This document shows positions 4,544-43,042 of a stretch of 64,000 nucleotides of DNA, one piece after another. The stretch is from a virus (Duplodnaviria > Caudoviricetes). Below the pieces are notes generated by a model. It was given only the letters and a program-made list of their open reading frames with translations. It did not search any database and was not told the origin of the DNA. The stretch spans positions 1-64,000 of the IMG/VR virus record IMGVR_UViG_3300037400_003220, one strand, 5' to 3'. The stretch's first letter is position 1. The number at the start of each line of letters is the position of its first letter. A program made the translations under genes and the position numbers.

Positions 4544-5476
4544 TTATATAAATATTATATTTTCATCTAAACTCTCATTAAGTCTAGTTCCATTTTTTAT
4601 TGCATTACCTCTATGAAGTGTTAAAACATTACCTATTTTCTTTAAGAATCTTTTTTCTGATTTATGCAAAAGGTTTATGAATTTTGAATAGTTTAGATTA
4701 AACTTATTATTTAATAGTTTAGTGACTAAATCTTTATCACTATTTTCTACAATTTTAATATCTTTTTTAAATTTAAAATAAGCCTCACAAGTTGGGCTTT
4801 TTATAATATCCGATAATTCGAACAATGGTTTTTCATTGTTAAAAAGATATTGGTATAATCCGTTTACAAACCCGTCTTGTTCAAAAGAATATGAATAATA
4901 TAAAGCCTCTGAAACAATATACTCTAAACTATTTTCATCTACATTACTTCTTATTATGTTATAAGCAATTTCGTAGTTTTTGTCTTTTGGTAACAACTCG
5001 CCAGTAAAAGTCATCTGATAACAATGCTCTAATTCATGTTGTAAATTATCTGCAGAAATTTCTTTTATTAATCCACTAGAAATTGAACATGTATGAAGAT
5101 ATATAAAAAACTTATTTCTTTCAAATAGTGGGCTAGTAGCAGAATTTTTTACAAAATTTTCATATTTTTTAAAGTTTTTATCAAAAGAGCCTTTATCCCT
5201 AAAGTCAATATTAGTTACAGTAATAATTATTTGGTAGTTACATAAAGTAAAACCAGTTATTTCAAACTGTTGTCTATATACATCACTATCATATAAAACC
5301 TTATCCTCCTTTTTAACCTTTTCACTAATAATTTGTATTATTGAATTAGTCAATGAGACGATTTCCGTACTTATTGATAGTTCTTCTTTTATCATTTCAG
5401 AAAGAACATTAGACTTTTCTTGATAAGAAATAATCTCATTTAATTGCTGCTCAGTTATTATTATATTTTTAGACAT
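4544..5476 (-). CDS. HExxH zincin-like metallopeptidase with N-terminal tag
   Basis: LQHELEHCYQ plus downstream EQDGFVNG; N-terminus MSKNIIITEQQLNEII; paralog of 57797..58687. Confidence 0.6.
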   Translation of the reverse strand: MSKNIIITEQQLNEIISYQEKSNVLSEMIKEELSISTEIVSLTNSIIQIISEKVKKEDKVLYDSDVYRQQFEITGFTLCNYQIIITVTNIDFRDKGSFDKNFKKYENFVKNSATSPLFERNKFFIYLHTCSISSGLIKEISADNLQHELEHCYQMTFTGELLPKDKNYEIAYNIIRSNVDENSLEYIVSEALYYSYSFEQDGFVNGLYQYLFNNEKPLFELSDIIKSPTCEAYFKFKKDIKIVENSDKDLVTKLLNNKFNLNYSKFINLLHKSEKRFLKKIGNVLTLHRGNAIKNGTRLNESLDENIIFI

Positions 5477-7261: not shown

Positions 7262-8098
7262 TTAATTTTGGGCCATTAAACTCTCCGTATTTCGCCTGTT
7301 TATCAAACCATTCAATTGTTTACCATTTTGTGTTGTACAACTTTCTTTTATTTTAAAACAAGCATAAGCGAAATCATCTTTATTAATAGTTCCATCTTTT
7401 TCAATTCTGCAATTAGCAAGAGTCTGAAAAACTGGTGAATTTTTAAAATTTTTCCTACCACTATTATAGATTATAGATATACAGGCATCAATAAATCCTT
7501 GTGGATATAAATCCGTATTCTGTAAATATTTTGGCAAAGATTTAAACGCCTCATTCATCTCTTGTTCATAAATTTTAATATCTTCTGCAAATATAGCATC
7601 TGCTTGTTCTTGCGTTATTGATTTAGCACTCTTTAACCACTGCGGATCGTTTCCAGTTATTTTATGCCCCCACCCTATGGTTCTAATTCCTCTAACTTTT
7701 TCTTTTGGAGTTGCAAAATATGGTTCTAATTTGCACTTTTCATAATCTTTTATATGTTCTATTCCTTCTCTAGAAATCTTAAAATTGAGATATATTCTTT
7801 GTTCTATTTTCGGAATAACATCTTCATTTTCAATTTGTGCTATAATCTCCTGCTTTTGTTCTTGACTGACAGGTAAAACATTATTGATGATTGCATATAA
7901 TGAAGTAAATGATATAACGCCCATACTGGCAATGATTGCAGTTCTTCTTGCGAAATCAGAAAACGTCTTACATCCCCTATACAATGTTTGATATACCTTC
8001 TTTAAGTTAATTGATGACTCGTTTAACAACCCAGATCTTGTATATTCAAGCAAAACATAATTAACATATTGTCTCTCAGTTAAATAAACTTTTCTCAT
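7262..8098 (-). CDS. GH24 (T4-lysozyme-like) muramidase with N-terminal tag and hydrophobic segment
   Basis: ISREGIEHIKDYEKCKLEPY...RTIGWGH...ITQEQADAIFAEDI...NRRNTE; N-terminus MRKVYLTERQY...LLNESS. Confidence 0.8.
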   Translation of the reverse strand: MRKVYLTERQYVNYVLLEYTRSGLLNESSINLKKVYQTLYRGCKTFSDFARRTAIIASMGVISFTSLYAIINNVLPVSQEQKQEIIAQIENEDVIPKIEQRIYLNFKISREGIEHIKDYEKCKLEPYFATPKEKVRGIRTIGWGHKITGNDPQWLKSAKSITQEQADAIFAEDIKIYEQEMNEAFKSLPKYLQNTDLYPQGFIDACISIIYNSGRKNFKNSPVFQTLANCRIEKDGTINKDDFAYACFKIKESCTTQNGKQLNGLINRRNTESLMAQN

Positions 8099-8100
8099 AG

Positions 8101-8622
8101 TTACTCATGATATGCTTTAATACCAACCTTATTTCCGTTTTTATCAATTAAATCGTCCACTACTATTCCTGGTTCATTTGCTATTTTAGCCCACAACCCG
8201 CTTATGGCAGAATCAGATTGATTCTCTGACCAATTTTCATCATAAAAAGAACTAACTCTATTTTTAAATAGGCTACAAACTGGATAATCTTGCAAAAGGA
8301 ATGCGAGATAAAGTTTATATGCAATACCAAGTCTTCTTATTTCTTTATTAACATTGATATGTAGTTGATAGTATTGTTCGCCATTAATTTTAACCTCTTC
8401 GGCCAGGAAATTTAGAAATTTTCCATCAATTTCTTTCCCGTCAATAACTGGTGTTAGGTGAAAGAGATTTCTACTAACAGAAACGCCCGCAGGTATCTCG
8501 TTCGAAACTTCAAACTGGATATCTGACGGGTTACAAAAGATTAACTTCTGGATTGAATCATTTTTGTCAATTTCTTCCAAAAGCAACTTAGCCTGTGATT
8601 CTGTTAGAATTACCTTTCTCAT
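8101..8622 (-). CDS. GNAT-fold acetyltransferase-like protein with N-terminal tag
   Basis: Motif-A-like HINVNKEIRRLGIAYKLY; N-terminus MRKVILTESQAKLLLEE. Confidence 0.55.
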   Translation of the reverse strand: MRKVILTESQAKLLLEEIDKNDSIQKLIFCNPSDIQFEVSNEIPAGVSVSRNLFHLTPVIDGKEIDGKFLNFLAEEVKINGEQYYQLHINVNKEIRRLGIAYKLYLAFLLQDYPVCSLFKNRVSSFYDENWSENQSDSAISGLWAKIANEPGIVVDDLIDKNGNKVGIKAYHE

Positions 8623-9559: not shown

Positions 9560-12500
9560 TTAGTCTGGTAAAATATCGCTATTGGTGTCATCCTTGCTTA
9601 TTTTTTCCAACTCATTTAATTTAGACATCAACTCTTCATTTATCATAAGGCCTTTGTCTATTATTTGAGGGCGCTCGTAGTGTGGCTCCTTATTTGTTAG
9701 TACCTGCATTTCATATGCTTTAAATACATCTTCATTAGTGTGTTTATTTCCTCTTATAAGGCCTCTACTCATTTTCACCTCTTGTAGTGGAGCACCACCT
9801 CCACCCATATCACCTAAGTCCTCGGTGCCTTCATCTCCCCCAATGTCTCCTCCTTCATCATCTGGACCTCCAATGTCTCCAATATCATCTCCGAAGCCTC
9901 CGTCCATTGGTGGCATTCCTCCACCTCCGCCGCCCATTGGGCCGCCTCCCATTCCATCACCTTCAATTGCGTTGAAGTTGTACTTAGCGCCTGGTTCACC
10001 ATAGATTCTGTCAACCTGCTTGAATAAACCAGTATTCTTTATTATTTGAGATGTTAATTGTAACTCATTTGCGATTGCAGACTCTAATCTTATCTGATTC
10101 AATATATCAGCAATTTCAGCATCTGTTTTACCCAATATTTCTTTCTGTACATCATGCCATGACATCAATGGAATACCTCCGCCCTGTTCTGCTAGTGCTG
10201 TTGAAGCGAGTGACACTCTCTTCGTCATGTTATCCAACTCCATTAATTCTATTTGATTAGATGGGTTGTTTAGTGATAATGTGAAGTTAGTTAAATCATC
10301 AACAAACCCCAATAAATATAAATGGATAATGGCAATCTTGGTTAATTCCATTATGATTGTTTGTTGAATAGAATTAACGGTTCTACTAAATCGAACATCC
10401 ATTAATGATAAGTTTTGACCCTTACCTTGTGCTTCATTGAAGTTTAAGTAAGTTTTAGGAATTTTCAACATTGAAAGTATTTTCTTTTCGAAATATTCAA
10501 TGTCTTCCATACCATTTTGGAAATTGGCACCCTGTAGCGTCTCAATACTTGACGGATCTTGTCCTGGCCTTACTGGAATAAAGTAATCAGTAGAAACATC
10601 AAGATAGTTTTTACGCAAGTCAATTTGGCCAGTTTGTGGATCTACAATAGGAGCACGCTTAAAATTATTTGCAAATTCTTGCAAATATGCTGGTACATCA
10701 GCCTCATCAATGTTACCAACATTTACCTTAAAGATGCGTCTCTCTACGCTTCTTTCTAGTCTGTGTAGGAATATAGCGTCCTCTAACATTGAAAGCATCC
10801 TCCAGTGACGTCTTGCGCCATTAAGATAACTACAGTTGTGTGTAACTATACCATTTGCAAAGAAATTGGAATTATCATTATTTACTGTTATATCATATGT
10901 TTCCATTTCCCCACAATAATTTACAGATTGTACTTTCTCTAATTTAAAGCCATCTTTTTTGCGATTTGAAAAATCATATTTTTTCTCTTGTTTATTAATA
11001 CTTTCATAATAATAGAAATAAAACGTTTCACATCTACTAGTTATTTTAACTCGACCATTATAAGAACTTGAAGTTTTTCCTATTCTATTTCTTGATTTAA
11101 CATTTGATGTCTTATATCCTAACGACTGTATTAATGTTTTAAAATCTTTAATAAGTTCTTCATTTGCCAATTCAATCTGACAACGTAATATTCCGTATTT
11201 ATCAATATTATAAGATCCATCAGCACTCATTAAACCACTTATAAACGCCTTCTTTATTTCATCACTGCATGAATAAACCCAAGATGGTATTCTTTTTTTA
11301 GAAAAACCATCTATAAAGCCCATTCTGTAAAGAACTGTAGCAAGGCTTTTTGAAGATACAATAACTTGTGAGAATTCATTCTTTAAAGATTTATCATATG
11401 GTCTAACATATTTTGGTGTTTTACCAGTTATTTTCTTTAAATAATTAAAGAATTCATTATTCTCAGTATTATACTCTCCAACTGCAAATGAAACCAATTT
11501 TTTATTTGTAATCCATCCATCACCAAGCATAAATCCGAAAAATCTTGCAAAATCATTATCAATAAAATCTGGAATATATTTTGAATAATCATTCCACCAT
11601 TTCATTGTTTTTTGTAAATTACATTCTTCAGACGTTGGGTATTTTTTATCTATTTGAACTACATTATTATGTTTGTTACTGCTATTATCAATTACAAGAA
11701 GGTCACCAATTTTTATGTCTTTTAATTCTTTATATTCCAAAATTTCATTATTAAGGCACAAGAATTTATGATCAGAAGTTGCTTTTATTTCATTATGTCT
11801 TGTTGAAAGTGAATATACTGGTTTAACACCCTTATTTTGCTTCATAGTAACAATTGATGCCTCTTTCTCTTGTGTCTCAACATTAAATGTTAACACAGAG
11901 TCACCAATCTCTATGTGTTTTATTTCTTTATAACCATCTATTGTCTCGATTCTAGAATCAGATGTTATACACCCATATGGTAGGAAAATACTATCCTTAA
12001 TTAATCTGAAGTGTGCAACCTGCCAACTTTGGTAAGGCGTTTGCTCATTATGGCCTTCCCAGATAAATTTAACCTCATCTGGTTTTAGGTTATATAAGTT
12101 AGCAGAAGGAACTGGGCCTCCATATGCATTTTCAATTCCGTTTTCCAGACGCCTCATACTATAAACGTCTAATCTCCTCCAACCAATGATGCCTTCGTTT
12201 TGGTCTATATTTAAAAACATAAATTCGTTACCATATTTGCAAGTATCTCTTGTAATCATTGGCAACATCATCATAATATCAAGCCTATTCACAAATAAAT
12301 CCTCAAGAACCGCTTTAATTCTTTCAGATTTTGAATAGATGTTAAGCATTTTACCCTTCTTTAGAGTTGTCGCCTCTTCGGATAAAATATCCAAACCAGA
12401 GTGTATATCTGGCCACTGATCCATTAGGTCAACGTCTCTGTACATTACTCTAACTTGAGTAGAGCCAGCAAGCGCCGCCATAGAACTTTCGTAACCATTC

Positions 12501-12712
12501 TTTCTCCACTGGTATGAAAGCAATTTTTGTTGTTTTAATTGTAATAATTTTTGATCTCTAGCCTCTTTATTATCAAAAGCATATAACACCTCTGATTGTG
12601 GCATTTGTATATCATAAGATACTGGTTGTCTTCTCGCCTCAGAAGATCCAGCACCCATCGAAATCATAACATTTCTTAAACGTTGAAATACTGTTGGTTT
12701 TTCGTTTGCCAT
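9560..12712 (-). CDS. portal protein (T4 gp20-like) containing an intein
   Basis: YRDVDLMDQWPDIHSGLDILSEE, VAHFRL...PYG/SYLNGARRHWRMLSMLEDAIFLHRLERSVERRIFKVNVGN, EDIEYF; Gly/Asp-rich C-terminal tail. Confidence 0.92.
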   Translation of the reverse strand: MANEKPTVFQRLRNVMISMGAGSSEARRQPVSYDIQMPQSEVLYAFDNKEARDQKLLQLKQQKLLSYQWRKNGYESSMAALAGSTQVRVMYRDVDLMDQWPDIHSGLDILSEEATTLKKGKMLNIYSKSERIKAVLEDLFVNRLDIMMMLPMITRDTCKYGNEFMFLNIDQNEGIIGWRRLDVYSMRRLENGIENAYGGPVPSANLYNLKPDEVKFIWEGHNEQTPYQSWQVAHFRLIKDSIFLPYGCITSDSRIETIDGYKEIKHIEIGDSVLTFNVETQEKEASIVTMKQNKGVKPVYSLSTRHNEIKATSDHKFLCLNNEILEYKELKDIKIGDLLVIDNSSNKHNNVVQIDKKYPTSEECNLQKTMKWWNDYSKYIPDFIDNDFARFFGFMLGDGWITNKKLVSFAVGEYNTENNEFFNYLKKITGKTPKYVRPYDKSLKNEFSQVIVSSKSLATVLYRMGFIDGFSKKRIPSWVYSCSDEIKKAFISGLMSADGSYNIDKYGILRCQIELANEELIKDFKTLIQSLGYKTSNVKSRNRIGKTSSSYNGRVKITSRCETFYFYYYESINKQEKKYDFSNRKKDGFKLEKVQSVNYCGEMETYDITVNNDNSNFFANGIVTHNCSYLNGARRHWRMLSMLEDAIFLHRLERSVERRIFKVNVGNIDEADVPAYLQEFANNFKRAPIVDPQTGQIDLRKNYLDVSTDYFIPVRPGQDPSSIETLQGANFQNGMEDIEYFEKKILSMLKIPKTYLNFNEAQGKGQNLSLMDVRFSRTVNSIQQTIIMELTKIAIIHLYLLGFVDDLTNFTLSLNNPSNQIELMELDNMTKRVSLASTALAEQGGGIPLMSWHDVQKEILGKTDAEIADILNQIRLESAIANELQLTSQIIKNTGLFKQVDRIYGEPGAKYNFNAIEGDGMGGGPMGGGGGGMPPMDGGFGDDIGDIGGPDDEGGDIGGDEGTEDLGDMGGGGAPLQEVKMSRGLIRGNKHTNEDVFKAYEMQVLTNKEPHYERPQIIDKGLMINEELMSKLNELEKISKDDTNSDILPD
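10835..11971 (-). mobile_element. intein with LAGLIDADG endonuclease (379 aa) in the portal
   Basis: PYG|CITSDSRIET...NFFANGIVTHN|CSYL; internal FFGFMLGDGW and FISGLMSADGS motifs. Confidence 0.93.
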
Positions 12713-22117: not shown

Positions 22118-23677
22118 CTAATTAGTTTTATTATTTTTCCAAACATATTTTATTAAACCACAATCCCAAATTCTTTTTAAACCTAATTCGTTAGCCATTT
22201 CTGTCTCTGTCATAGTCAACGGGAAACCATATTTTTTATGCATGATTTGTTTTCTAAAATTAAATTTATGGAAACGTTTATATCTATCCAATTTTGGCGA
22301 ATAATACCTATAATCTGGTTTTTCCCACTTGTCGAAGTAAAATCCTAATATATTGTATATATTTTTCTTTGTTGCATTTAGCCATCTGGCATCTAAAAAT
22401 GATTTAATCTCTGTTACATCCTCATGTTTTCTAATAAAATGTTTAAATAAACGCTGTGCAATTCCTTGACAATTATAATTAATATTAGTCGTATATCTAG
22501 TCAGTTCATAAACTCCATTTGAATATTGTTTAAATGACATTAATGCAACTATTTCATCATTATAGTAAGCAGACAAATAAACAGAAGATCCAGCAAAACC
22601 CTGTATATGATATTTTTCTAAAAACTCCTTTGCTATACTAGTTTTAACTTCTTTTATTTCACATTTTCTTGCACCAACATTTGGTTTATCCTTATTAATA
22701 CCTAAGGCATGTCTTATTTTATCTAAAACTAATTCCTTGTGTTCAAGATATTCATCCTCAAAAATCTGAAACAAGGTTATACCAGTTTCATTACATATTT
22801 TTGTTTTTTTATAATGATAATATTTATCTTTAGCAAAATCTTCAGAATGCCACCTTAAACCATTATATTCTATAGCAAAATTATAATTTGGTATATAGAT
22901 GTCTAGTTCTTTTCCATCTAAAACCTTAATATCATGACGTATAACGTTTTCTTCACCAACCAATTTACATACATATAAATATATTTCTTCTTCATTTTTT
23001 GATAATTGATGTCCACACTTAGGGCATCCCTTTCCCTGTAAAAAAAGATCTGGACTTGTTAAGAAAAAACCGTGAGGTGTGCCATCCTGTCCAATTTTAT
23101 TACAAAATATTTTAACTTTAGTTTTGCTATTTTTATAGTCAACACTATCATATGAATATTTTTCTTCGCCGTATAATTCTTTGCATTTCTTAATAAATTT
23201 ATCAGTTGTATATTTTGTGCTCACTACTTGTTTTTTCCTACCAATTAATGGATGTGTGCACCCTTTTAAGTGAGAGTTTGGATCTTGCCAAAACTCTCCA
23301 TATTCATTTCCATTTTCGTCTAAATCATGTGAAATTATTTTAACTTTTGTATGCATATTAACATACTCAACTTGTGAATAGTCTAAATTTTCACCAGCAT
23401 GAACTGCTTTAAACATTTCAATAATCTTATCTTTAGACATTCTTTTTGACTCTGATATGCGTTTGTTCCTTTTTTTGGGATGGCCTTGCCCTTTTAAATG
23501 ATTACAAGGTGTTTGCCAAAACTCACCATACTCATTTCCGTTTTCATCTAAATCATGATCAATTATTTTAACTGGTGTTCTATTGTTAATGTATTCAACC
23601 TCTGAATAATCTAAGTTTTCTCCAACATGCACTAATAATGCCTTATTTATAAATTTTTCTCTATTACTTTTATTCAT
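22118..23677 (-). CDS. free-standing homing-nuclease-like protein (DUF723-like repeats, PD-(D/E)xK domain, GNAT/Mom-like C-terminus)
   Basis: Repeats YSxVEYxNxxTxVKII...GEFWQxP..HLKG; ELDIYIPNYNFAIEYNGLRWH; ELTRY...SFLDARW...YNILGF. Start set at MNKSN (23677). Confidence 0.75.
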   Translation of the reverse strand: MNKSNREKFINKALLVHVGENLDYSEVEYINNRTPVKIIDHDLDENGNEYGEFWQTPCNHLKGQGHPKKRNKRISESKRMSKDKIIEMFKAVHAGENLDYSQVEYVNMHTKVKIISHDLDENGNEYGEFWQDPNSHLKGCTHPLIGRKKQVVSTKYTTDKFIKKCKELYGEEKYSYDSVDYKNSKTKVKIFCNKIGQDGTPHGFFLTSPDLFLQGKGCPKCGHQLSKNEEEIYLYVCKLVGEENVIRHDIKVLDGKELDIYIPNYNFAIEYNGLRWHSEDFAKDKYYHYKKTKICNETGITLFQIFEDEYLEHKELVLDKIRHALGINKDKPNVGARKCEIKEVKTSIAKEFLEKYHIQGFAGSSVYLSAYYNDEIVALMSFKQYSNGVYELTRYTTNINYNCQGIAQRLFKHFIRKHEDVTEIKSFLDARWLNATKKNIYNILGFYFDKWEKPDYRYYSPKLDRYKRFHKFNFRKQIMHKKYGFPLTMTETEMANELGLKRIWDCGLIKYVWKNNKTN

Positions 23678-23885: not shown

Positions 23886-25742
23886 TTAGCGAAGTTCGTC
23901 AATATTCCAAGTTTGAAGTCCATTACAAACCACGGCTCCGTAATAGCGAGAATTCACCATCTTCTTAGCATACCTGGTTATGATGCCCTTCACGGGTGCG
24001 AAGTTAGCAGTGTTGTAAATAGTTGGGGTTAACTGCATTGGTACGTATGGAGCGTAGATGTAACCAGTGTCAAGTAATGAATCACCCTTATGACCCATGA
24101 TTAATGACCAGTGTGGTGAATATGGATCTACATATACTTCATAACGTCCTTGGAGAGAACCAACCTTCTCAATACCCATTGAGTAAGTTACAGCCTCTGC
24201 ATTTGCATCAGATACATGGAAGTACTCAAGGTCATTCAATACTGCAGAAATTTCAGTAGAAACTACGATAAAGTTTGCACCACCACGTAAAGTTGCTTTG
24301 TGAATTTGAGCAGAAATTTGGTTAATCTTAGTCATAAGAGTTTGGTTCCAATCCTTTTGAGTGTAGTTAGTAGAGAATCCTGCTTGACGTCTCCAACCAT
24401 TGTAATCCCACTTTAATTGCCATGGAGAAGCCTTACGAAGGTCTTTCAAGATTTCACGGTCAATTTCAGCAGCAATTTGCTCAGAAAGAATAGCAGTTAA
24501 CTCAGCCTCTGCGTCGATGTTGTGGAAAGCAGCAACGTCTTGTGCAAGTTCAGGAGACCATGTAGCACGAAGTTTTCTTTCTTCAACAGAAACAGTTACA
24601 TCAGAAAGTTTGAATGAAACTTCACCGATTTCAGTTTCCAATTCGAGAGAATCATATTGTGCCCAAGCAACACGGAATAAGTCATCAGCACTCTTACCAG
24701 AAAGAACGCTCTTGTCAACACCAATATAACCGTCAATAGTTTTCTTACCTTCTAAGTCAGTTACAGGTTTAGCAAGATCCAACTCAATAAACATTTTACC
24801 GTCTGCTTCGCAGATGTCACCATATTGTACAAGACCCTTACCATATTGTTGTGCAATAGCGCGGAATCTTACAGGTTCAACAGCCTTAAATGCTGTTGTT
24901 CCACTTACTGAAGGAATTTCCTCTTTAGTAACAACGTGTAATGATGCTAAGAATGCTTCTGTATCCATTTCGCAACCATCAGGGCCGATAAGACGACCAG
25001 CGCCAATGTTAGCAAAACCCTTAACTGCTACAAGGATGTTACGGATAGTACCGTCATTGTGCTCTCTAAGAGTTAATGTATCTGCACTAACGGTTTCGCC
25101 ATTGTGACGTAATTTAGTAGCCTCTAAGTTACCTACTTTGATATGAATTTTACCCTTTGATTGATCGAAAAGGCCATCGTTGTAGAATAAATCATAAAGA
25201 GATTTCTTGAAATATCTAACTACGTCTGGGCCAACAGTCTTACCGCTTTCATCCTCAACGAAATTAACAACTTCGTCTGGAAGATAATAAGTATTAACCT
25301 TCTCGCCAGTTCTGCGGTCGATACCTTCTTTACCCATTAAGCCAAAGTGACTGCCTTCCCATGTCTTATTACCATTTTCTTCAACTTCTTCCCATTTACG
25401 CTCAGAAGTAACAGGAAGGATAAAGAACAATTTACCAATAGGCATGTTCATAGCCTGAACAGATACGATATCATTAGCCAAAAGACGTGAGAATACACGG
25501 CGAACCAATGGGAATACAACAGTTTCGAAAGAACCACTGTTTTGAGCATCGGTAGCCTCGTTTAACATCATGTTGGCCTCGTTCTCATAAAGAGTTGCTA
25601 AGTTATCTTTCAAATAACCATCAAGACCTTTAGTAAAGCCCATACCTTCCCAACGCTCGCGGATGAGTTGACGTGCTTCGGCCTGTTTGCCAGTAGAGAT
25701 ATTACCTACTTGGCCTTCATTTAAAAATTGTAATTTATTCAT
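23886..25742 (-). CDS. major capsid protein (T4 gp23-like)
   Basis: VFPLVRRVFSRLLANDIVSVQAMNMPIG, RKLRATWSPELAQDVAAFHNIDAEAELTAILSEQIAAEIDREI, YAPYVP, TRYAKKMV. Confidence 0.95.
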   Translation of the reverse strand: MNKLQFLNEGQVGNISTGKQAEARQLIRERWEGMGFTKGLDGYLKDNLATLYENEANMMLNEATDAQNSGSFETVVFPLVRRVFSRLLANDIVSVQAMNMPIGKLFFILPVTSERKWEEVEENGNKTWEGSHFGLMGKEGIDRRTGEKVNTYYLPDEVVNFVEDESGKTVGPDVVRYFKKSLYDLFYNDGLFDQSKGKIHIKVGNLEATKLRHNGETVSADTLTLREHNDGTIRNILVAVKGFANIGAGRLIGPDGCEMDTEAFLASLHVVTKEEIPSVSGTTAFKAVEPVRFRAIAQQYGKGLVQYGDICEADGKMFIELDLAKPVTDLEGKKTIDGYIGVDKSVLSGKSADDLFRVAWAQYDSLELETEIGEVSFKLSDVTVSVEERKLRATWSPELAQDVAAFHNIDAEAELTAILSEQIAAEIDREILKDLRKASPWQLKWDYNGWRRQAGFSTNYTQKDWNQTLMTKINQISAQIHKATLRGGANFIVVSTEISAVLNDLEYFHVSDANAEAVTYSMGIEKVGSLQGRYEVYVDPYSPHWSLIMGHKGDSLLDTGYIYAPYVPMQLTPTIYNTANFAPVKGIITRYAKKMVNSRYYGAVVCNGLQTWNIDELR

Positions 25743-31035: not shown

Positions 31036-32382
31036 TTATTTACTATGATTTCTTATTATATTCTCCAACTCGTTTATTTCATACAGATTATTATTGTATA
31101 TTCCATTGTATATCGGTTTCAAGTAATCTATAGTATCTTTGTTGCTGGCAACATATAATATCTTAACACCATTCTCTTCGCATTCAACATTTTTTGATAT
31201 ATCATATCTAACTTGCTTTATAAATTTATCATCCCCACCAAAATATTTTAGTGGAGCAAAATGTTGCTCACCCTGGCATTCTATTGCTAATTTATATCTT
31301 GGTATGTAGAAATCAAAACTTTTCATCCCTAGCCAATCAAACCTCTTCTGTCTTATAAATAACAATCCTAATTTTTTTAATAACATGTTTACATCTCTTT
31401 CTAAATGGGATTCATTACAATATGGACAAGCATCTCCTCTTGTTATCACATGATTTGGCGTTACGTTAAACTCACCATGCTTTGGGCATATTATAGTGAC
31501 TTTAGTGTTGGAATTTACATATTTCACTTTAGAAAAATCATAATTCAAACCCCTGTAAATATCTTTTAGTTCTTCAATAAAAGTTTCATTACTTTTTCTT
31601 ATTGTATTACCTCTCCTTTCGTCATAACATTTTTGACACCCATGCCCTTGCAGGTGATATAACGGCGTCATAAAAAATGAACCGTGTTTTTGACATATAA
31701 TTTCAACTTTTTTCTTGTTTCCTTGATAATTAACTTTTGAGTAATCATATTTATCACCATGTATTGCGCGTGCTTCAGTAATAAATTGTTCGGTAGTTTT
31801 CTTTTTGCTTTTAAAACACATTGGGCATCTATCCCCACATAAATGACGACTAGGTGTTTGCAAAAATTCACCATGTTCAGGGCAAACTATACATACTTTT
31901 GTTTTGTTATTAATATACTTAACTTTCGAATAATCATATATGCTACCATGCACTTCTCTTGCTCTCTCAATAAAACTTTCAGTTGTTAATTTTTTAACAC
32001 CGCCACAGGCTTGGCATCCATGACCATTTAAAAAATCATTAGCCTTTATTTTGAAATCTCCGTGTATCGGACATGTTATTACAACAGGCTTTGTTATTCC
32101 GTTATATATAGTGTTATTATACGAATATCTATCACCCCATTTCTCTTTACACTTCTTTATAAAAGTCTCTGTTGTGTATTTCAACCTTCTTTTTTCTTTT
32201 GCACAAATAGGGCATCCTCCACCATTAATGTGTGTGTACTGATCTTGCCAAAATTCGCCATGTTCTGGGCATATTATGCACAATTTATCATGGGCCTTTT
32301 TAAATACAACCTTAGAATAATCGTATTTATCTCCATGAATAAATTTTGCTTTTTTAATAAAAATTTCTCGCTTGTCTATCAT
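31036..32382 (-). CDS. DUF723-type zinc-ribbon-repeat homing nuclease (PD-(D/E)xK/Vsr-like)
   Basis: Five CPxHGxF...GCxxC-type repeats; FDFYIPRYKLAIECQGEQH...DISKNVECEENGVKILY. Confidence 0.82.
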   Translation of the reverse strand: MIDKREIFIKKAKFIHGDKYDYSKVVFKKAHDKLCIICPEHGEFWQDQYTHINGGGCPICAKEKRRLKYTTETFIKKCKEKWGDRYSYNNTIYNGITKPVVITCPIHGDFKIKANDFLNGHGCQACGGVKKLTTESFIERAREVHGSIYDYSKVKYINNKTKVCIVCPEHGEFLQTPSRHLCGDRCPMCFKSKKKTTEQFITEARAIHGDKYDYSKVNYQGNKKKVEIICQKHGSFFMTPLYHLQGHGCQKCYDERRGNTIRKSNETFIEELKDIYRGLNYDFSKVKYVNSNTKVTIICPKHGEFNVTPNHVITRGDACPYCNESHLERDVNMLLKKLGLLFIRQKRFDWLGMKSFDFYIPRYKLAIECQGEQHFAPLKYFGGDDKFIKQVRYDISKNVECEENGVKILYVASNKDTIDYLKPIYNGIYNNNLYEINELENIIRNHSK

Positions 32383-32462: not shown

Positions 32463-33188
32463 TTACGAATTTAATAACCACTTATCAAATTTTGAATATT
32501 TATCGTGGTTTTCCAAGACAGTTTCTTTGCCCGTACATTCTTTTGATTCTATAAACGGCTCTAATTCAGAGTCTTCTAACCTTATAATAGCACCAGGTGT
32601 ACTATTTTGTGTAACAACGTCCCAACATACCAGTTCCAGATCATCCCCAACAATTAATTTACCTAATTGTTGTGTAACACTTCCAAGTGCTCTACTTGAT
32701 ACTCCGATTCTTAAACCAGAAATAATCCATTGTGCAACGGTATCAGCAAGGTTAGAACAAATTCCATATCTTCTGAAACCCTCTGTTATAGGTAATTCCA
32801 TTTTGCCAACTAATGTTCTACCCACCCAGTGCAATTCTATAATATTCATACATATTCTTTCGCCATCAATTGCACTTTCTTCTGGGTGATTTAGTTGGCC
32901 ATATGCTCGTCTTTCTTTAATGGCCTGTTGATATTTTTCAACCTCTCTTTTTAATACTGTTTCTGGATATATTCTTCCATTTGCATTCTCAATCCCATAT
33001 TTCTGGAATACTGCAGATACGACGAATGGGCGAGGTAGATCGTGCGCCACCCCACTATTAAAATCGTCGATAGATTCTTTAATTAACTTGTTCTCTTTTG
33101 AGTTAATATCTATAAAACCATCACTTTCAATTAATAGGCCAGTTCCTGTTTGTCCTTTTTTTATTTCAACTAATTGCTCTCTTTTCAT
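32463..33188 (-). CDS. prohead maturation protease (T4 gp21-like)
   Basis: NANGRIYP...YGQLNHPE, IGVSSRALGSV, WDVVTQNSTPGA; start set at MKREQL because the late motif lies at 33222-33229. Confidence 0.92.
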   Translation of the reverse strand: MKREQLVEIKKGQTGTGLLIESDGFIDINSKENKLIKESIDDFNSGVAHDLPRPFVVSAVFQKYGIENANGRIYPETVLKREVEKYQQAIKERRAYGQLNHPEESAIDGERICMNIIELHWVGRTLVGKMELPITEGFRRYGICSNLADTVAQWIISGLRIGVSSRALGSVTQQLGKLIVGDDLELVCWDVVTQNSTPGAIIRLEDSELEPFIESKECTGKETVLENHDKYSKFDKWLLNS

Positions 33189-33254
33189 ATTATACTTCCG
33201 TAAATATTGTTCTACTTTATATATAAATAGTCTTTTGTTCACAAAAACAACAAA

Positions 33255-36696: not shown

Positions 36697-37857
36697 TTAC
36701 TCCCCGCCTAATTCACTTTCGGTAAAATAACCATCAACTATTATTTCTTTTTCCTTTCTCTTATCTGCTAAATCCTTTTCAAACGATTGATAGTCTGAAT
36801 CATATTTGATTTTACTCATGATTTTATCCATACCATCTCTACCCAATTTAGTTCCAACCAATACCTCATCCATTAATGTGTTAAATTTCTCATTATCTAA
36901 TGACATTAACTTTTGAAGCAGTTTTTCGGTATAGGTGTCATCAAATTCTTCGCCACATATACTATTCCAAAACACTCGGCCTAAAATCATATAGTATGGT
37001 TCATCCTGTAATGTATCACAGCGATTAACTATATAATCTGCTCGTTTTTCTGGTAACGTGTTAAAAGTTAAAGCCTCAATACATCCGCGAATGGCTTCTG
37101 TTAATAAGAATGGAAATATTATACCTTCAGCAAGAATCTTGATATAATTTGATGAATCATCAACGGAAGTTTCAACATAAGCATCCTGCTGATTGTTATC
37201 ATCTGTTATCTCGTCGTGTTTGATTAATAACAAGTAATTATTAATTTTGATGATCTTTGTATATAAGTAAGGTAACTCCTCGTCTAACTCAAAAATCTCT
37301 TTAACACATTTTGTTAATAAATTGTCTGTTAATTCCAATGCCGCGCCAATTGTAATTGCGTTTGTATAACGTCTTCTAACTTCATCACTATCTTCATCAT
37401 TTATTTCATCAATACTATCATACTCAACTGGTACTTTCGTATCTGGTTTTACATGAAAGTCTTTTGATTGAGGAATAGAAGTTACAAGATTACATTCAAG
37501 TTCCAATTCTTTTCCATTTAATTCAAATAATGACAACACAATATCAGCACAAAGTTTTTCCAACTCTGCCTTAATCTTATTCTCTTTTTTTTGACAAATA
37601 AGGATTAACTTATTAAGTTTGTTCTCAATCTTATCGACTGGAAAATTTGTTATATCGTCTGAAAAAGAACTTACCGCGTTTTCATAAGCCGCCTCTAACA
37701 TGCGCATGATTGCTTCATCTATAAAAGACTTGTCACTTGATAACGGAAATTGCTTATTATGAACAGCATTTATCAGCCAAGAAGGTAATTCTCGGTTGTT
37801 TTCTAATGATTCTTTAATAAGTCTATATTGTTCTTTATTTATGAATATGTTTTTCAT
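36697..37857 (-). CDS. tagged hypothetical (putative head-internal) protein
   Basis: N-terminus MKNIFINKEQYRLIKESLE; lies in the core-protein cluster. Confidence 0.6.
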   Translation of the reverse strand: MKNIFINKEQYRLIKESLENNRELPSWLINAVHNKQFPLSSDKSFIDEAIMRMLEAAYENAVSSFSDDITNFPVDKIENKLNKLILICQKKENKIKAELEKLCADIVLSLFELNGKELELECNLVTSIPQSKDFHVKPDTKVPVEYDSIDEINDEDSDEVRRRYTNAITIGAALELTDNLLTKCVKEIFELDEELPYLYTKIIKINNYLLLIKHDEITDDNNQQDAYVETSVDDSSNYIKILAEGIIFPFLLTEAIRGCIEALTFNTLPEKRADYIVNRCDTLQDEPYYMILGRVFWNSICGEEFDDTYTEKLLQKLMSLDNEKFNTLMDEVLVGTKLGRDGMDKIMSKIKYDSDYQSFEKDLADKRKEKEIIVDGYFTESELGGE

Positions 37858-38156
37858 TTCAAATCTTTCTTTCTAACAGAATAAGAACTCTCTTTTAGAT
37901 ATTTTAACTTTGCTTCTTTTAGTTGCTTCTTGGTAACCGCTTCGCTTATACCAGCATTTTGCCTTAATGAATCAGCCGAAAATCCAACACTCACGCCTTT
38001 TTGTGTGTCAACACCTTGACTTTGTGCCGAGTCAATAGTGTTTTGTGCGGCACTTTTTAATTCTTTTGTCTGTGCAAGTTGCTCATCGCCACTTAATTGT
38101 ATTTCACTTAGCATACACTCTGCTAATTGTTCTTCAGTAAATAAAACTCTTTTCAT
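37854..38156 (-). CDS. small prohead core-like protein
   Basis: MKRVLFTEEQLAECMLSE...ISEAVTKKQLKEAKLKYLKESS; start set at 38156, downstream of the late motif at 38179-38186. Confidence 0.6.
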   Translation of the reverse strand: MKRVLFTEEQLAECMLSEIQLSGDEQLAQTKELKSAAQNTIDSAQSQGVDTQKGVSVGFSADSLRQNAGISEAVTKKQLKEAKLKYLKESSYSVRKKDLK

Positions 38157-38231: not shown

Positions 38232-38810
38232 TTATTTAAGACACTTACTAATTGATTCGGCAATCTTTTTTAACTTTTTCTTTGTTACTACATTCTCCTG
38301 CATTGGCATTGTATTTTGTGGTGCTTCTTCTGCTGGTTGTTCAACCTGTTGCTCATCACTTTCTGACTCGTCATCTGCAGGCTCCTCGTTTGATGCCGTA
38401 TTAATTGCCTTAATCACTTCCTTTTTTGTTGCTTCGCTAGCATTTTTTAATGCTGCTTTGACAATCATTTTTGCTGCATACTTGTTAAGACCTTCATCTT
38501 CATTTTCGTTATTGTAGTTGTTTAACGTCGTCGATAATTTGCCAGTTAACTGTTGTATGTATTTTTTTGGGTCTGTATCTTCGTCGGCTTCAACACCAGC
38601 ATCAAAATTTGTATCAAATTGGCTTTGGCCGTTGTCTTGAGACATATCTTCCATTGGTGGCATTCCTCCCTGGTCTTGCATCATTGGGTCTCCGCCCATC
38701 GCCTGAGGGTCCATCGGTGGCATACCGTCCATTGGCATGTCTTGAGGTTGTTGTCCCATACTAGGATCGGTTGGAGGCATCTGTCCTTGGTCTCCGCCAA
38801 CCTTTAGCAT
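38232..38810 (-). CDS. core-like protein, probably the -1 frameshift extension of 38825..40318
   Basis: M/P/Q-rich low-complexity region, then a helical domain; in-frame upstream sequence SLSEGRT runs into the A7 run. Confidence 0.65.
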   Translation of the reverse strand: MLKVGGDQGQMPPTDPSMGQQPQDMPMDGMPPMDPQAMGGDPMMQDQGGMPPMEDMSQDNGQSQFDTNFDAGVEADEDTDPKKYIQQLTGKLSTTLNNYNNENEDEGLNKYAAKMIVKAALKNASEATKKEVIKAINTASNEEPADDESESDEQQVEQPAEEAPQNTMPMQENVVTKKKLKKIAESISKCLK

Positions 38811-38824
38811 GGTTCTACCCTCAC

Positions 38825-40318
38825 TTAGGCTTTTTTTGACTTTTTGCCCTCTTGAAGTCTACTTTTAATACCATCAAGTACTAAATCAACTACTTTCTCG
38901 AAAGGATCGCTGCTACCAATTTTTTGACCGTAAGGTTGTTCACCCTTAGCAGAATCGTCGTTCCAATCTTTCTCAGCAGTACCTGCTAATACTTCTTTGT
39001 TTGCTGGTGTTGACATTGGTTGTTTGCGATAACGTGGATGTTTGCCCCATGCGTCCAATTTTGTAATTTCTTCAGCCACAATTCTATCAATAGCCTCTTT
39101 TAATGTTTCTGGCTTTTTGCATTCGCATTTTTCTTTACCGCATTTTGGACAAACTTCTGCTTTTTCTTCCTTACTTTCGCATTTTCCTTCACAAAGTTTA
39201 TTAACAACAGCATTTGTGATTCTATCTACAGCCTCATTAACCTTTTCGTCGTTCCAACCCTGAACATCTAAACCACCATGAGGGCCATCCATAACTTTAT
39301 CTGGGCCTTCGATTTTAGATTCGATATTCTTTTCCTCACCGTGCATAGCCTTCTCAGTTTCCTCAAACTCTCTAATTAAAGTGTCCAACTCGTCGTTTAA
39401 GAAATCACCATCGCCTAACGGTCCATTATCTGGCTCTACATCTACAATTGGTTCTTCTTCAGTGTTAGCAAAATCCTCTAAATCTTCGTCGGATAATTCA
39501 TCATCACCAACTAATGTATCGGCATTAGCGTCGATATCGTCTGCATGGAAATCATCTGGGTTAAACTCAATCCCTTCATTCATTTTAACAGCCTTTGCCC
39601 CAGTTGGATGTTGGTCAGCAACCCCTTCTCCTTCTAAGTCATCATGAGCATCCTTTGGTTCCTCTGCTGTATCAACTTTCTTTGTTTTCATGGCATCAGA
39701 TTCGAGGTCTTTTTCAACGCCGTCAACTTTAGTGTTGTCATCGGCGCTTTCAACTGTAGCAGTTGCCTTAAGATCTTTGTCAAGTTCAGCCTTTGCTGGT
39801 TCCTCGAATGGGTCGCCTTGCTTAGCAGGATCAGTCGCTTTGCCTTTGCTTTCTGGGTCGCCAGTGTTATCTTTTCCGATGGTTTGTGAATTCTCGAATA
39901 TCTGGTGCATTCTATTCAACTCTTTACGGGCCTCTTCGGTCAAAACAGCCAAATTTTTCTTTCCGCGATTAAAATCAACAACAGAAACATCTTCGTGTTT
40001 ACCATAGGCCTCATTCAAACTAATCATCTTAAGTTCGAGTTGTTTAGTTGCCTCATTGTAACTCTTGTAACCGTTTTCGTTACGATAGTTAAATCCGCCA
40101 ATATACTCGTAAGATTCCGCAAGTTTTTCCTTGCCTTGTTCGGTAGTCATGATATAGTACATGTTACCTTCTTTAAGAATACCGTAAACTTTATTATCAG
40201 CGCCAAGTGTATGATATTCTACTTTGTTACTTCTTTTTGACTCATTTACAGGAACTCTGTACCCCATCAAGTACTGCATTCTATCTAATTGAGAGTCGAA
40301 TTTACTGTTATTTGCCAT
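38825..40318 (-). CDS. prohead core/internal protein
   Basis: Acidic low-complexity stretches and many [LIV]xE sites (VNES, LNEA, MNEG, VNEA, LQEG); late motif at 40362-40369. Confidence 0.65.
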   Translation of the reverse strand: MANNSKFDSQLDRMQYLMGYRVPVNESKRSNKVEYHTLGADNKVYGILKEGNMYYIMTTEQGKEKLAESYEYIGGFNYRNENGYKSYNEATKQLELKMISLNEAYGKHEDVSVVDFNRGKKNLAVLTEEARKELNRMHQIFENSQTIGKDNTGDPESKGKATDPAKQGDPFEEPAKAELDKDLKATATVESADDNTKVDGVEKDLESDAMKTKKVDTAEEPKDAHDDLEGEGVADQHPTGAKAVKMNEGIEFNPDDFHADDIDANADTLVGDDELSDEDLEDFANTEEEPIVDVEPDNGPLGDGDFLNDELDTLIREFEETEKAMHGEEKNIESKIEGPDKVMDGPHGGLDVQGWNDEKVNEAVDRITNAVVNKLCEGKCESKEEKAEVCPKCGKEKCECKKPETLKEAIDRIVAEEITKLDAWGKHPRYRKQPMSTPANKEVLAGTAEKDWNDDSAKGEQPYGQKIGSSDPFEKVVDLVLDGIKSRLQEGKKSKKA

Positions 40319-40390: not shown

Positions 40391-42946
40391 CTACTTTATT
40401 GTATTAATTTTATCAAAAGTTATTCTTTTTAAGTCTACTAACTTACCAATATACCCCAAACGCCTAAGTGTTTTGAATATAATATTACCATTTCCTAGTT
40501 CAGATCCATTCTTTAGTGAATCCTTCCTCATTCCTTTTATTTTATCGAATAAACACTTAACTTTTTTGGATAAAATGTCTAATTTCGCCTCATCTTTTTC
40601 TCCATTACACTCATCTTCTAAAGAGTCAATTTTATCGATAATATTTTTAGTTTTATGTGTTATACATTCTTTATCTAATTTTACTGCGGTGAGATTATCT
40701 CTCTCTGGCTCTCTTAACCATTTGTCTTTCTCTAATGAATATACTCCAGAGGCTGTATGTTCTTCACTCTCATCTTGTACATATAATTCAACTGGATAAC
40801 CGTATATTTTTAAATCTTCGTGTTGGTTATTCCAAATTGTCTTCTTTGAATCGAAATAATCTTTTACAAATTCAACCCTGTCATCAACTTCTTTAAAATC
40901 AACTACAATATGTAGATCGATATCTGAAAATTTACTCCAGTTATAATTTGCTAGACTACCAGTCATAATAATATCTTTTGGCTTGACCCAATTTACTTCC
41001 ATTGAATCAAAGAATGTGTCGGCAATATCTAGCAAACGCAATCTAACTCTTGAGTTTAATTTTCCGTTAATCCAGAATTTTGGATTTAATTGTTTTTGGA
41101 CATCGAATGATTGCAAAACATCGCCCAACTCATTATCATCGACAAACTCATCAATGCTTTCCCTAGTTAAAAATGGTATCGTATTTTTATCCTCGTATTC
41201 CGATACGACGTCATCAAAAGTTTCGTCAATTACATGAATATAGTCGCCATCGTCTCCGAGTAATAATTTTTTCTTATTGTAAAAATCAACCATTTCGTTT
41301 AGTTTCTTTTTCTTTATTTCATTATATTCTGAGAATGGTTTCCTCTGTTTATACCCATCATAAAGCCACTCCCTGAAATCATCTATAGAAACCTCTGTTA
41401 CCTTACCAAGTCCTTTCCATCCTTTATTGTAGTTTGATAGATAAGCCTTTTTTGCTTCTTCTTCTGTTTTAAAGCCAAACATAATTTTAGTTTCATCGAA
41501 TTTACCATTAATTACCTGGTCAATAGCAAATATTGTCTTGCAATCTAAATCCTTACCTAAAAATACATCAACGGCATCGCCATCAACCGCCTTTGTATGT
41601 GTGAAATAACCATAGTCGTTATGCATTAGACATTTCCACGCTTTTCCGTTTTTATCTTTACCTTTTCTATAACTACCCTTTGGGTTTTCTATTGCGATTT
41701 CGAAACCATATATATTAACTCTACCCATCTTATAATTACCTGCCTCTTTCTGTCCTTCTGTTGGGGTTGTATTGGTTTCTTTTCTTGCTTTTTCTAATTC
41801 TTTTTTAATATAAGACAATTGAGATTCTGTTAAATATACCTTTTTAGTGGTCATCATTGAATATTCTTCTTTTATTATTTTATCTAACCATTTTTTTACG
41901 CTTTCTAAATGATTTTTACAATCATCCATATCATAATGCCCGCCATTCTTTTTGAACTCGTCGTCTATAACGGCACAACAAATGTCATCATCCTCCATGC
42001 TTTGAGTATGATATATTTCATAGTCGTCTCCGAAAACTTTTTTTAGAATATGCACATAATGCTCGGCCATTTCAAGCGGTTCCTTGTCCTCACCATAATA
42101 TTTAGGTAATTTACCATCTTTAATCATGTCACGAACTGCTTTTCTTACTTTTTCTTCAAGATTTTTATCCACCGATTCGTTAATCACACTCTCATCTACA
42201 TATCTTAATGCATTGTATTGTGCCATTGGCATTTCTTTCCCATTGCTCATAGTTAATTTCTTTCCTAATAATTTATCCCTTGTAAGTCTAAAATCAGCCG
42301 TCGCCTTACTCTTATCCTGTGGAGACATCATGTGAAGAATAGCCTGCTTTGTATTATCCTCAATTTCGTCATCGCCAGGCATAAAACTATTGTATTCTAT
42401 TAGAGGTCTACTTCCGTTAATAATAAAAATTCGTCTATCAAATAAATGACTATCTCGACATACTTGATATACTATTTCATTTGTTAATTCCATAGGATAT
42501 CTGTTCATATACCAAAAACCAAACACCACACAATTTTGATTAATATATGGTACATCAATTATAAAATATCTACCCTTAATAACAAACTCCTCATCCGCAA
42601 AATCCAAATATTTACCAGTTTTGTAATAGTCTTGATTTATGTACTCATCCTCTCTTTTGTATCCTGTAATATCACTTGGCTTATATCCTCTGTTTGCTAA
42701 ATATTCTTGAACCTCTGGCCTTAACTGATCATGGATACTTCCTGGTTCGCCGTAAAACAATTTATTTTCATTTCTAAATCTTAAATAAACAAAAGGAATC
42801 GCGTTATCTTGCATATAGTCTTGTTGCCCACAGAAAAATATTTCATCTGGGGTATTGAAGTTGTTTTTCGAATTCTCTACTGACAACTTAAACAAATCAA
42901 TCATGTTCTTTCTCTTTTGCTTATCGTTTAATTCTAACTTCTTCAT
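40391..42946 (-). CDS. polyprotein: unknown N-terminal modules, InPase-like domain, Pol-beta-type nucleotidyltransferase
   Basis: EAGNYKMG...IAIENPKGSYR...YGYF...DGDAVDVFLG...FDETKIMFGF; TGSLANYNWSKFSDIDLH...VELYVQD. Confidence 0.75.
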   Translation of the reverse strand: MKKLELNDKQKRKNMIDLFKLSVENSKNNFNTPDEIFFCGQQDYMQDNAIPFVYLRFRNENKLFYGEPGSIHDQLRPEVQEYLANRGYKPSDITGYKREDEYINQDYYKTGKYLDFADEEFVIKGRYFIIDVPYINQNCVVFGFWYMNRYPMELTNEIVYQVCRDSHLFDRRIFIINGSRPLIEYNSFMPGDDEIEDNTKQAILHMMSPQDKSKATADFRLTRDKLLGKKLTMSNGKEMPMAQYNALRYVDESVINESVDKNLEEKVRKAVRDMIKDGKLPKYYGEDKEPLEMAEHYVHILKKVFGDDYEIYHTQSMEDDDICCAVIDDEFKKNGGHYDMDDCKNHLESVKKWLDKIIKEEYSMMTTKKVYLTESQLSYIKKELEKARKETNTTPTEGQKEAGNYKMGRVNIYGFEIAIENPKGSYRKGKDKNGKAWKCLMHNDYGYFTHTKAVDGDAVDVFLGKDLDCKTIFAIDQVINGKFDETKIMFGFKTEEEAKKAYLSNYNKGWKGLGKVTEVSIDDFREWLYDGYKQRKPFSEYNEIKKKKLNEMVDFYNKKKLLLGDDGDYIHVIDETFDDVVSEYEDKNTIPFLTRESIDEFVDDNELGDVLQSFDVQKQLNPKFWINGKLNSRVRLRLLDIADTFFDSMEVNWVKPKDIIMTGSLANYNWSKFSDIDLHIVVDFKEVDDRVEFVKDYFDSKKTIWNNQHEDLKIYGYPVELYVQDESEEHTASGVYSLEKDKWLREPERDNLTAVKLDKECITHKTKNIIDKIDSLEDECNGEKDEAKLDILSKKVKCLFDKIKGMRKDSLKNGSELGNGNIIFKTLRRLGYIGKLVDLKRITFDKINTIK

Positions 42947-43042
42947 TGCAAAACACAATATTCTACATAATAAATATAAATCAAAAACAAAAAAAGGGAA
43001 GATAAACTTCCCAATTTTACTGAATTTTAAGATAATAACTTA

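Follow-up and report, generated by a model that had tools for sequence, protein, structure and literature searches.

Programmed -1 frameshifts are well known in the morphogenesis genes of phages, for example lambda G/GT (G_GGA_AAG) and T7 10A/10B, in which a conserved shift near the 3′ end of a gene yields a minor, C-terminally extended form of the protein. In Escherichia coli dnaX, a slippery heptamer of Lys codons gives rise to two products, tau and gamma, which have a common N-terminal part and are made in a set ratio. The present work concerns a pair of open reading frames (ORFs), termed gene1 and gene2, read on the minus strand of a 64,000-nucleotide stretch of phage DNA (the window), which belongs to an IMG/VR record of 90.9 kb with an estimated completeness of 25%. 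The phage is an uncultivated, T4-like rumen jumbo phage. On comparison with related sequences, a run of seven A (A7) at the 3′ end of gene1 is very probably a real and widely conserved programmed -1 ribosomal frameshift site, and the production of a gene1-gene2 fusion by recoding is considered likely. An earlier note, made from the window alone, had proposed a frameshift giving a protein of 497 amino acids (aa) and another of about 695 aa. This proposal is supported by the conservation of the slippery site, of the register and of the junction peptide in relatives.

The locus resembles dnaX in several respects. The slippery heptamer consists of Lys codons, and is in many relatives exactly the A_AAA_AAG of dnaX; two products sharing their N-terminal part would be made in a set ratio; and a GAGGG resembling a Shine-Dalgarno (SD) sequence is found about 9–10 nt upstream in the clade of the window. 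The shift truncates the product of dnaX, whereas here it would extend the protein by about 200 residues into the next gene. Also unlike dnaX, no conserved downstream hairpin was found, the zero-frame stop codon lies 0–1 codon past the site, and the SD-like element is not conserved, in a phage that makes no use of SD sequences. With lambda G/GT and T7 10A/10B, the site shares its place near the 3′ end of a morphogenesis gene and its persistence across distant relatives despite sequence divergence, and a G_GGA_AAA heptamer is present in two relatives. It differs from them in three ways: the pair belongs to a head module and does not resemble gpG/GT or gp10; the added part is a protein that is conserved and can evolve separately, and that is free-standing, with a leader, in some clades; and the junction bears a protease-type motif. 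The known repertoire of recoding mechanisms is unchanged by this site. What is new is the gene pair in which the -1 site lies, found in T4-like jumbo phages that are uncultivated, and no prior description of a gene1/gene2 frameshift site was found in the literature.

The junction between gene1 and gene2

Gene1 (38825..40318, minus strand) is a 497-aa ORF in the zero frame that ends with the codons GGC AAA AAG TCA AAA AAA GCC TAA. The heptamer A_AAA_AAA (38837..38831, minus strand), with the zero-frame register TC A AAA AAA GCC, is the proposed -1 shift site. The TAA stop codon of gene1 (38827..38825) is located one codon past the heptamer. Gene2 (38232..38810, minus strand) is a 192-aa ORF in the -1 frame. 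On the 5′ side of the site, the -1 frame is closed by a TAG at 38861..38859, as read from the sequence, and it is open from there through 38232. Starting from this TAG it reads T S R G Q K V K K S L S E G R T M; the peptide after the TAG, TSRGQKVKKSLSEGRT, leads directly into the gene2 ATG at 38810. The position of the TAG confines the shift to the last 11 codons or so of gene1.

The zero-frame stop is spanned by a -1-frame linker of seven codons (38811..38831, minus strand), AGC CTA AGT GAG GGT AGA ACC, encoding S L S E G R T. The linker contains an L-S-E motif (38828..38820) of the [LIV]xE type. The predicted fusion, of which gene2 would form the C-terminal part, amounts to 496 + 7 + 192 = 695 aa. 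The features of the junction that had been pointed out in the earlier note are exact in the window sequence: the codons at the end of gene1 with A7 at 38831–38837, the -1 frame that opens shortly upstream and reads K-K-S-L-S-E-G-R-T into the gene2 ATG, the LSE motif, and a GAGGG 9 nt 5′ of the run, which is located at 38851..38847 and corresponds to Glu-Gly codons of gene1.

According to the proposed mechanism, a share of the ribosomes translating gene1 would slip back one base at A_AAA_AAA, one codon ahead of the stop. The slipped ribosomes would read S-L-S-E-G-R-T and then translate gene2, so that the 497-aa protein and the 695-aa gene1-gene2 fusion would be produced in a fixed ratio. For the A7 of the window, we infer that the shift would be mainly ribosomal and aided by the nearby stop. 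A further potential shift site, weaker than the first, is C_AAA_AAG (GGC AAA AAG, 38841–38850, minus strand), in the same -1-open stretch and three codons 5′ of the heptamer.

Conservation of the slippery site in an independent sample

An independent sample of relatives was obtained with the core of gene2, FDAGVEADE.DPK.YIQQLTGKL. This core identified 203 relatives in IMG/VR, of which 80 were fetched and 62 were distinct. In 56 of the 62 distinct loci, gene2 is in the -1 frame behind an ORF of at least 100 aa, and all 56 loci of this -1 type contain an in-register X_XXY_YYZ heptamer inside the short overlap. The heptamer is A_AAA_AAA in 41 loci and A_AAA_AAG in 10; A_AAT_TTT occurs twice, and A_AAT_TTC, G_GGT_TTT and A_AAA_AAT once each. 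The stop codon follows at a distance of 0–1 codon in 48 of the 56 loci, and the layout of the window, with the heptamer, one codon and the stop, is the commonest (35/56). The overlap was 3–16 codons long in 54 of the 55 -1-type relatives scored. No ATG is found in the 10 codons past the stop in 52 of the 56 loci, and an [LIVM]xE motif is present at the junction in 50. Heptamers that are not A-runs (G_GGT_TTT, A_AAT_TTY and, among the relatives found through gene1, G_GGA_AAA) occupy the same register, which points to tandem slippage of the ribosome and not to slippage of the polymerase.

Layouts of the junction among relatives of gene1

A total of 438 homologues of gene1 were found, every one ending at the same Lys-rich C-terminus, and about 45 loci were fetched. 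A scan of IMG/VR with the gene1 sequence alone gave no match, whereas alignment-based scans did find homologues. Among the gene1-derived loci, 24 distinct junctions have the frameshift layout (type A), and gene2 is in the -1 frame in 22 of them. The two exceptions are variants from one near-identical trio with tracts of A10, A11 and A12. The clade of the window comprises seven type A junctions, which end with A_AAA_AAA GCC TAA. The gene1 ends of the other type A junctions are NNA AAA AAA AAG TAA, GGA AAA AAA TAA, G_GGA_AAA TAA, or a longer A-run; the heptamer G_GGA_AAA occurs in two gene1-derived loci, and the tracts of most relatives are A9–A12. The A_AAA_AAG TAA type of junction, with VNEGRTLLKVG in the -1 frame, was confirmed in L004 and L053.

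In type A, a conserved peptide, [LIV]xE[GN][RK][KT]xLKV[GP], has its Glu 5 nt past the first base of the stop codon. In 13 of the 24 junctions, the first ATG, GTG or TTG is found only 13–19 codons past this Glu. As these junctions have no nearby start codon, the conserved junction peptide cannot be made there by ordinary initiation. Written more broadly as [LIV]xE-(G/N/R)(R/K)..LKV, the peptide shows its protein-level conservation ahead of any start codon. The substitution pattern of the type A junction, as judged from the aligned sequences, is that of a coding sequence in the -1 frame. Pairwise differences at the first, second and third positions of the -1-frame codons are 0.30, 0.23 and 0.52, respectively, and the amino-acid identity is 0.63 in the -1 frame versus 0.37 and 0.32 in the other two phases. 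Synonymous changes at the junction include Arg encoded by AGA, CGT, CGC, CGA, CGG or AGG, and Gly encoded by GGT, GGA or GGC. The frame-0 ATG that is often found after the stop appears and disappears with the synonymous AAT and AAC codons for Asn of the -1 frame.

Alignment of the orthologous junctions had been suggested in the earlier note as a check of the frameshift. In this alignment, relatives at 41–47% identity retain the site, the -1 register and the junction peptide, including the [LIV]xE, as does the much wider set found through gene2, and most relatives lack a gene2 start codon. Close relatives at 73–95% identity all have exactly A7 followed by GCC TAA. The frameshift reading is drawn from well over a hundred related contigs in which the junction peptide and the -1 register are preserved together with a slippery site, usually without a start codon for gene2.

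Other solutions are found in sister lineages. On the gene1 tree, the type B relatives, without the slippery tail, group in a single clade that lies among several deep lineages of type A. Their gene2 has its own ATG, is in a variable frame or behind a terminator, and starts with a leader of about 20 residues ending with [LIV]xE (for example MRITISEKQVLDAIASVLME, followed by NRKVLKVG). Type C relatives have, behind a complete gene1 and a terminator, a gene of about 340 aa in which a copy of the C-terminal domain of gene1 is joined in frame to gene2. In all of the aligned sequences (28/28), which span the three layouts, the junction Glu is invariant, mostly with [LIV] two residues earlier. Full in-frame fusions are found in P0122 (693 aa), P0133 (752 aa) and L023, each of which still contains A10–A11. 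Distant homologues P0136, P0138 and P0140 are single chains of 470–541 aa consisting of a gene1-like N-terminal domain and the gene2 core. Given these three chains, the gene1 and gene2 parts may derive from one ancestral protein.

Independent initiation of gene2 and possible stimulators

That no recoding takes place in this phage has little probability. Gene2 would then be made solely from the ATG at 38810, perhaps by termination-reinitiation after the stop 14 nt upstream, and the A-run would be a by-product, which a Lys-rich tail in an AT-rich genome could explain. All seven junctions of the window's clade have an ATG four codons past the junction Glu, a GAGGG (38822..38818, minus strand, within the linker codons) precedes this ATG at classical SD spacing, and one clade does express gene2 as a separate gene. 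The separate-gene relatives, however, always carry an added leader, which the gene2 of the window does not have. The peptide S L S E G R T, 5′ of the ATG, is homologous to a peptide that is conserved at the protein level in relatives without a start codon, and it follows a heptamer in the most frequent layout of the family.

SD sequences are, moreover, otherwise unused by the phage. About 50 credible genes of the window have A/T-rich leaders without an SD sequence, and gene2 is the sole gene preceded by a strong GAGGG. This near-absence of SD use points to a host in which initiation does not depend on SD sequences, for example a member of the Bacteroidota. The window yielded no tRNA genes. As the GAGGG of the linker persists in relatives that have no start codon, and as SD sequences are not used, it is more plausibly the pair of codons for Glu-Gly in the junction peptide.

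The gene2 ATG is also included in a predicted hairpin (38756..38812, minus strand), with a z-score of -2.4 for a stretch of 141 nt. For L033 and L040, which are close relatives, the z-score is about -4, and the hairpin is not conserved beyond the close clade. As modelled, it may limit independent initiation. It begins about 19 nt past the A-run, a predicted position that is too distant for a classical frameshift stimulator. Initiation at 38810 looks like a secondary route.

The upstream GAGGG had been pointed out in the earlier note. Its position is as described, and a dnaX-like role as frameshift stimulator is doubtful: it is confined to the close clade, where it encodes a conserved Glu-Gly, in a phage without SD use. 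The stop codon adjoining the heptamer is the sole widely conserved candidate for a stimulator.

Several observations weigh against the programmed frameshift. The heptanucleotide AAAAAAA has 122 matches on both strands of the AT-rich 90.9-kb record; an A7 run is by itself no more than chance would give, the window alone says little, and the significance of the site comes only from the relatives. In one relative, L030, the codon in the P site is non-canonical (GTA AAA TAA). No conserved stimulatory structure was found downstream, as the folds computed for each locus gave no stem at 5–9 nt recurring across clades, and a search of Rfam gave no match around the site. Since gene2 of the window's own clade has an ATG, it could also, or exclusively, be produced separately.

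Possible slippage of the polymerase or sequence errors

Bacterial RNA polymerases slip on A tracts of 9–12 nucleotides, the lengths found in most relatives. There is a slim chance that the shift is mainly transcriptional, with the polymerase adding one A so that some mRNAs encode the fusion in frame. The near-identical contigs L032, L023 and L024, which come from different samples, have A10, A11 and A12 at a locus position of about 4830, which places gene2 in the -1, 0 and +1 frames, respectively. This trio reflects either a real population heterogeneity at the slippery tract or a homopolymer assembly error. Long runs are also retained in the in-frame fusions. Against a mainly transcriptional shift, the run of the window is only A7, and the -1 relation is independent of the length of the run. 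Several lineages rely on G_GGA_AAA, G_GGT_TTT or A_AAT_TTY, at which slippage of the polymerase is implausible and tandem slippage of tRNAs is canonical. The ribosomal shift remains the preferred reading; in the relatives with A9–A12, slippage of the RNA polymerase and sliding of the ribosome probably add to it.

Ribosome sliding and frameshifting on poly(A) tracts have been described (Koutmou et al. 2015, PMC4363877). The relatives in which iterated AAA Lys codons, with A9–A12, immediately precede the stop resemble such tracts, as well as "shifty stops". They differ in that the out-of-frame product is a conserved, functional protein and not a by-product or a substrate of quality control, and the window has only A7.

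No indels are present where contigs from bovine metatranscriptomes (four runs; relatives 85–99% similar) span the run and the junction. We drew no evidence from these contigs in either direction, as contigs from RNA libraries cannot show the level of transcription, rare slipped transcripts or a single transcript, and may result from DNA carry-over.

It is hardly credible that the split results from a homopolymer assembly or sequencing error in a continuous 695-aa ORF, or that the pair is a decaying pseudogene: near-identical contigs do differ in homopolymer length and in-frame versions do occur, but dozens of assemblies that are independent, and that come from different studies and collections, have the same -1 register, this register is also found at non-homopolymer heptamers, the close relatives uniformly have the same A7 end, and both ORFs are under purifying selection.

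The two proteins

Gene1 encodes a small N-terminal α/β domain, a long acidic and disordered middle region, a conserved C-terminal domain and a Lys-rich tail. The AlphaFold2 model has a mean pLDDT (predicted local distance difference test) of 57 and is confident only at residues ~31–113; the remainder is disordered or forms isolated helices. A fold search (VIA wide) gave a best Z of 5.8, under the stated noise level of the tool, and no fold was assigned. A profile search of the PDB with the gene1 alignment gave only matches to designed helical proteins, with E values of about 0.7, and a feature search of the ESM Atlas returned just unnamed clusters with scores of at most 0.8. Gene2 had one marginal and uninformative match in the PHROG scan (E value 0.0026). 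No match was found in GenBank phages by blastn or tblastn with gene1, or by tblastn with gene2 or a distant relative of gene2; at the sensitivity of these sequence searches, no cultured relative was found. The relatives are found on contigs of 340–370 kb, mostly from rumen and gut metagenomes.

The core of gene2, FDAGVEADEDTDPKKYIQQLTGKLS, is highly conserved. Gene1 contains conserved [LIV]xE-like motifs (VNE, LNE, LTE, IFE and MNE). In gene2, a second invariant hxE (h, hydrophobic; PMQE in the window) precedes the C-terminal tail. The region that follows it (around 38232–38300) encodes a basic helix, NVVTKKKLKKIAESI, with a resemblance to the leader tag described below. In many relatives gene2 ends with a conserved F.GK.F motif, which is not present in the clade of the window.

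Genomic context

Several head genes were identified by family scans on the same strand as gene1 and gene2: a portal (9560..12712), a major capsid protein similar to T4 gp23 (23886..25742) and a prohead protease of the gp21 type (Peptidase_S77, 32463..33242, E value 8e-18). An InPase/nucleotidyltransferase polyvalent protein is encoded on this strand just upstream of gene1. The head module is interrupted, between the protease and the region of the major capsid protein, by two large HNH/homing-endonuclease genes (31036–32382 and 22118–23677, minus strand; PHROG 559, E values 1e-93 and 1e-100). In the relative L052, the protease directly follows a four-gene module.

Putative role in the prohead

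The products of gene1 and gene2 probably serve as core proteins of the prohead or as internal proteins in a T4-like head, an assignment that relies on their position in the head module, their acidic and disordered composition and the conserved [LIV]xE motifs. These are also the grounds for the "prohead core" designation of the earlier note, for which homology brought nothing, as no Pfam, PHROG, PDB or fold match was obtained.

Prohead proteases of the T4 type cleave after the Glu of a short motif, and the internal proteins of T4 bear N-terminal targeting propeptides that are cleaved (PMC9026906). The present system resembles that of T4 in having a T4-like head, with a gp23-like major capsid protein and an S77 protease, acidic and largely disordered proteins, and conserved [LIV]xE motifs, including that of the junction. 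The leader of the free-standing gene2, which ends with [LIV]xE, resembles a targeting propeptide (PMC9026906). It differs in that no sequence similarity to IPI–III, gp22, gp67 or gp68 is present, and cleavage and packaging are here only putative. Targeting by a frameshift fusion to a carrier is, to our knowledge, not known in T4.

It is tentatively proposed, at somewhat less than even odds, that the frameshift is a packaging device. The only way into the prohead for the leaderless gene2 would be as a -1 extension, a passenger on its carrier gene1, and the gp21-type protease would then cut at the conserved [LIV]xE of the junction and release it. In sister lineages, the alternatives to the frameshift would be a generic N-terminal leader, a duplicated C-terminal domain of gene1, or an in-frame fusion. 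This functional proposal is weakened by two points: the specificity of the S77 protease in this phage is assumed from T4, and no informative Pfam or PHROG family was found for gene1 or gene2.

A leader-like tag, M.K-hhh-[TSN]-E-x-Q-h (h, hydrophobic), was noticed in other proteins, with instances such as MKNIFINKEQY, MKRVLFTEEQL, MRKVILTESQA and MSKNIIITEQQL. The pattern was written by hand after the sequences had been viewed, and is a lead only. The tag is found at the predicted N-terminus of five minus-strand ORFs (4544–5476, 7262–8098, 8101–8622, 36697–37857 and 37854–38156), and a sixth instance is internal to 40391–42958, at residue ~395, at a module boundary of the polyvalent protein. 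All are on the structural strand, and the same tag heads the free-standing gene2 of type B relatives. A possible function of the tag is that of a capsid-targeting propeptide. A hidden Markov model of the type B gene2 leader gave only non-significant matches with the ORFs of the window (E > 1). An origin of this leader from the C-terminal helix of gene1 was considered and dropped, as the similarity is too short for a test and the tag of other head-module proteins matches the leader.

Significance

Because gene callers split the pair and place the start of gene2 at an internal Met, the annotation of a conserved protein of about 200 residues is wrong at the N-terminus, and a product of about 700 residues is missed, in hundreds of large uncultivated phages from metagenomes of the rumen, the gut and other sources. 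The family amounts to an unusually well-replicated natural experiment, in which the same junction occurs with at least five canonical heptamers, with A-tracts of 7 to 12, as in-frame fusions, and with two un-fused solutions. This makes it possible to test how a stop beside a slippery run drives the -1 shift, what the shares of the ribosome and of the polymerase are, and whether a frameshift fusion can serve as a route of capsid targeting in T4-like heads. If the packaging proposal is true, recoding would set how many copies of a cargo protein are made as well as its targeting to the capsid, at a site that would work mainly by a slippery run beside a stop codon, in hosts without SD pairing.

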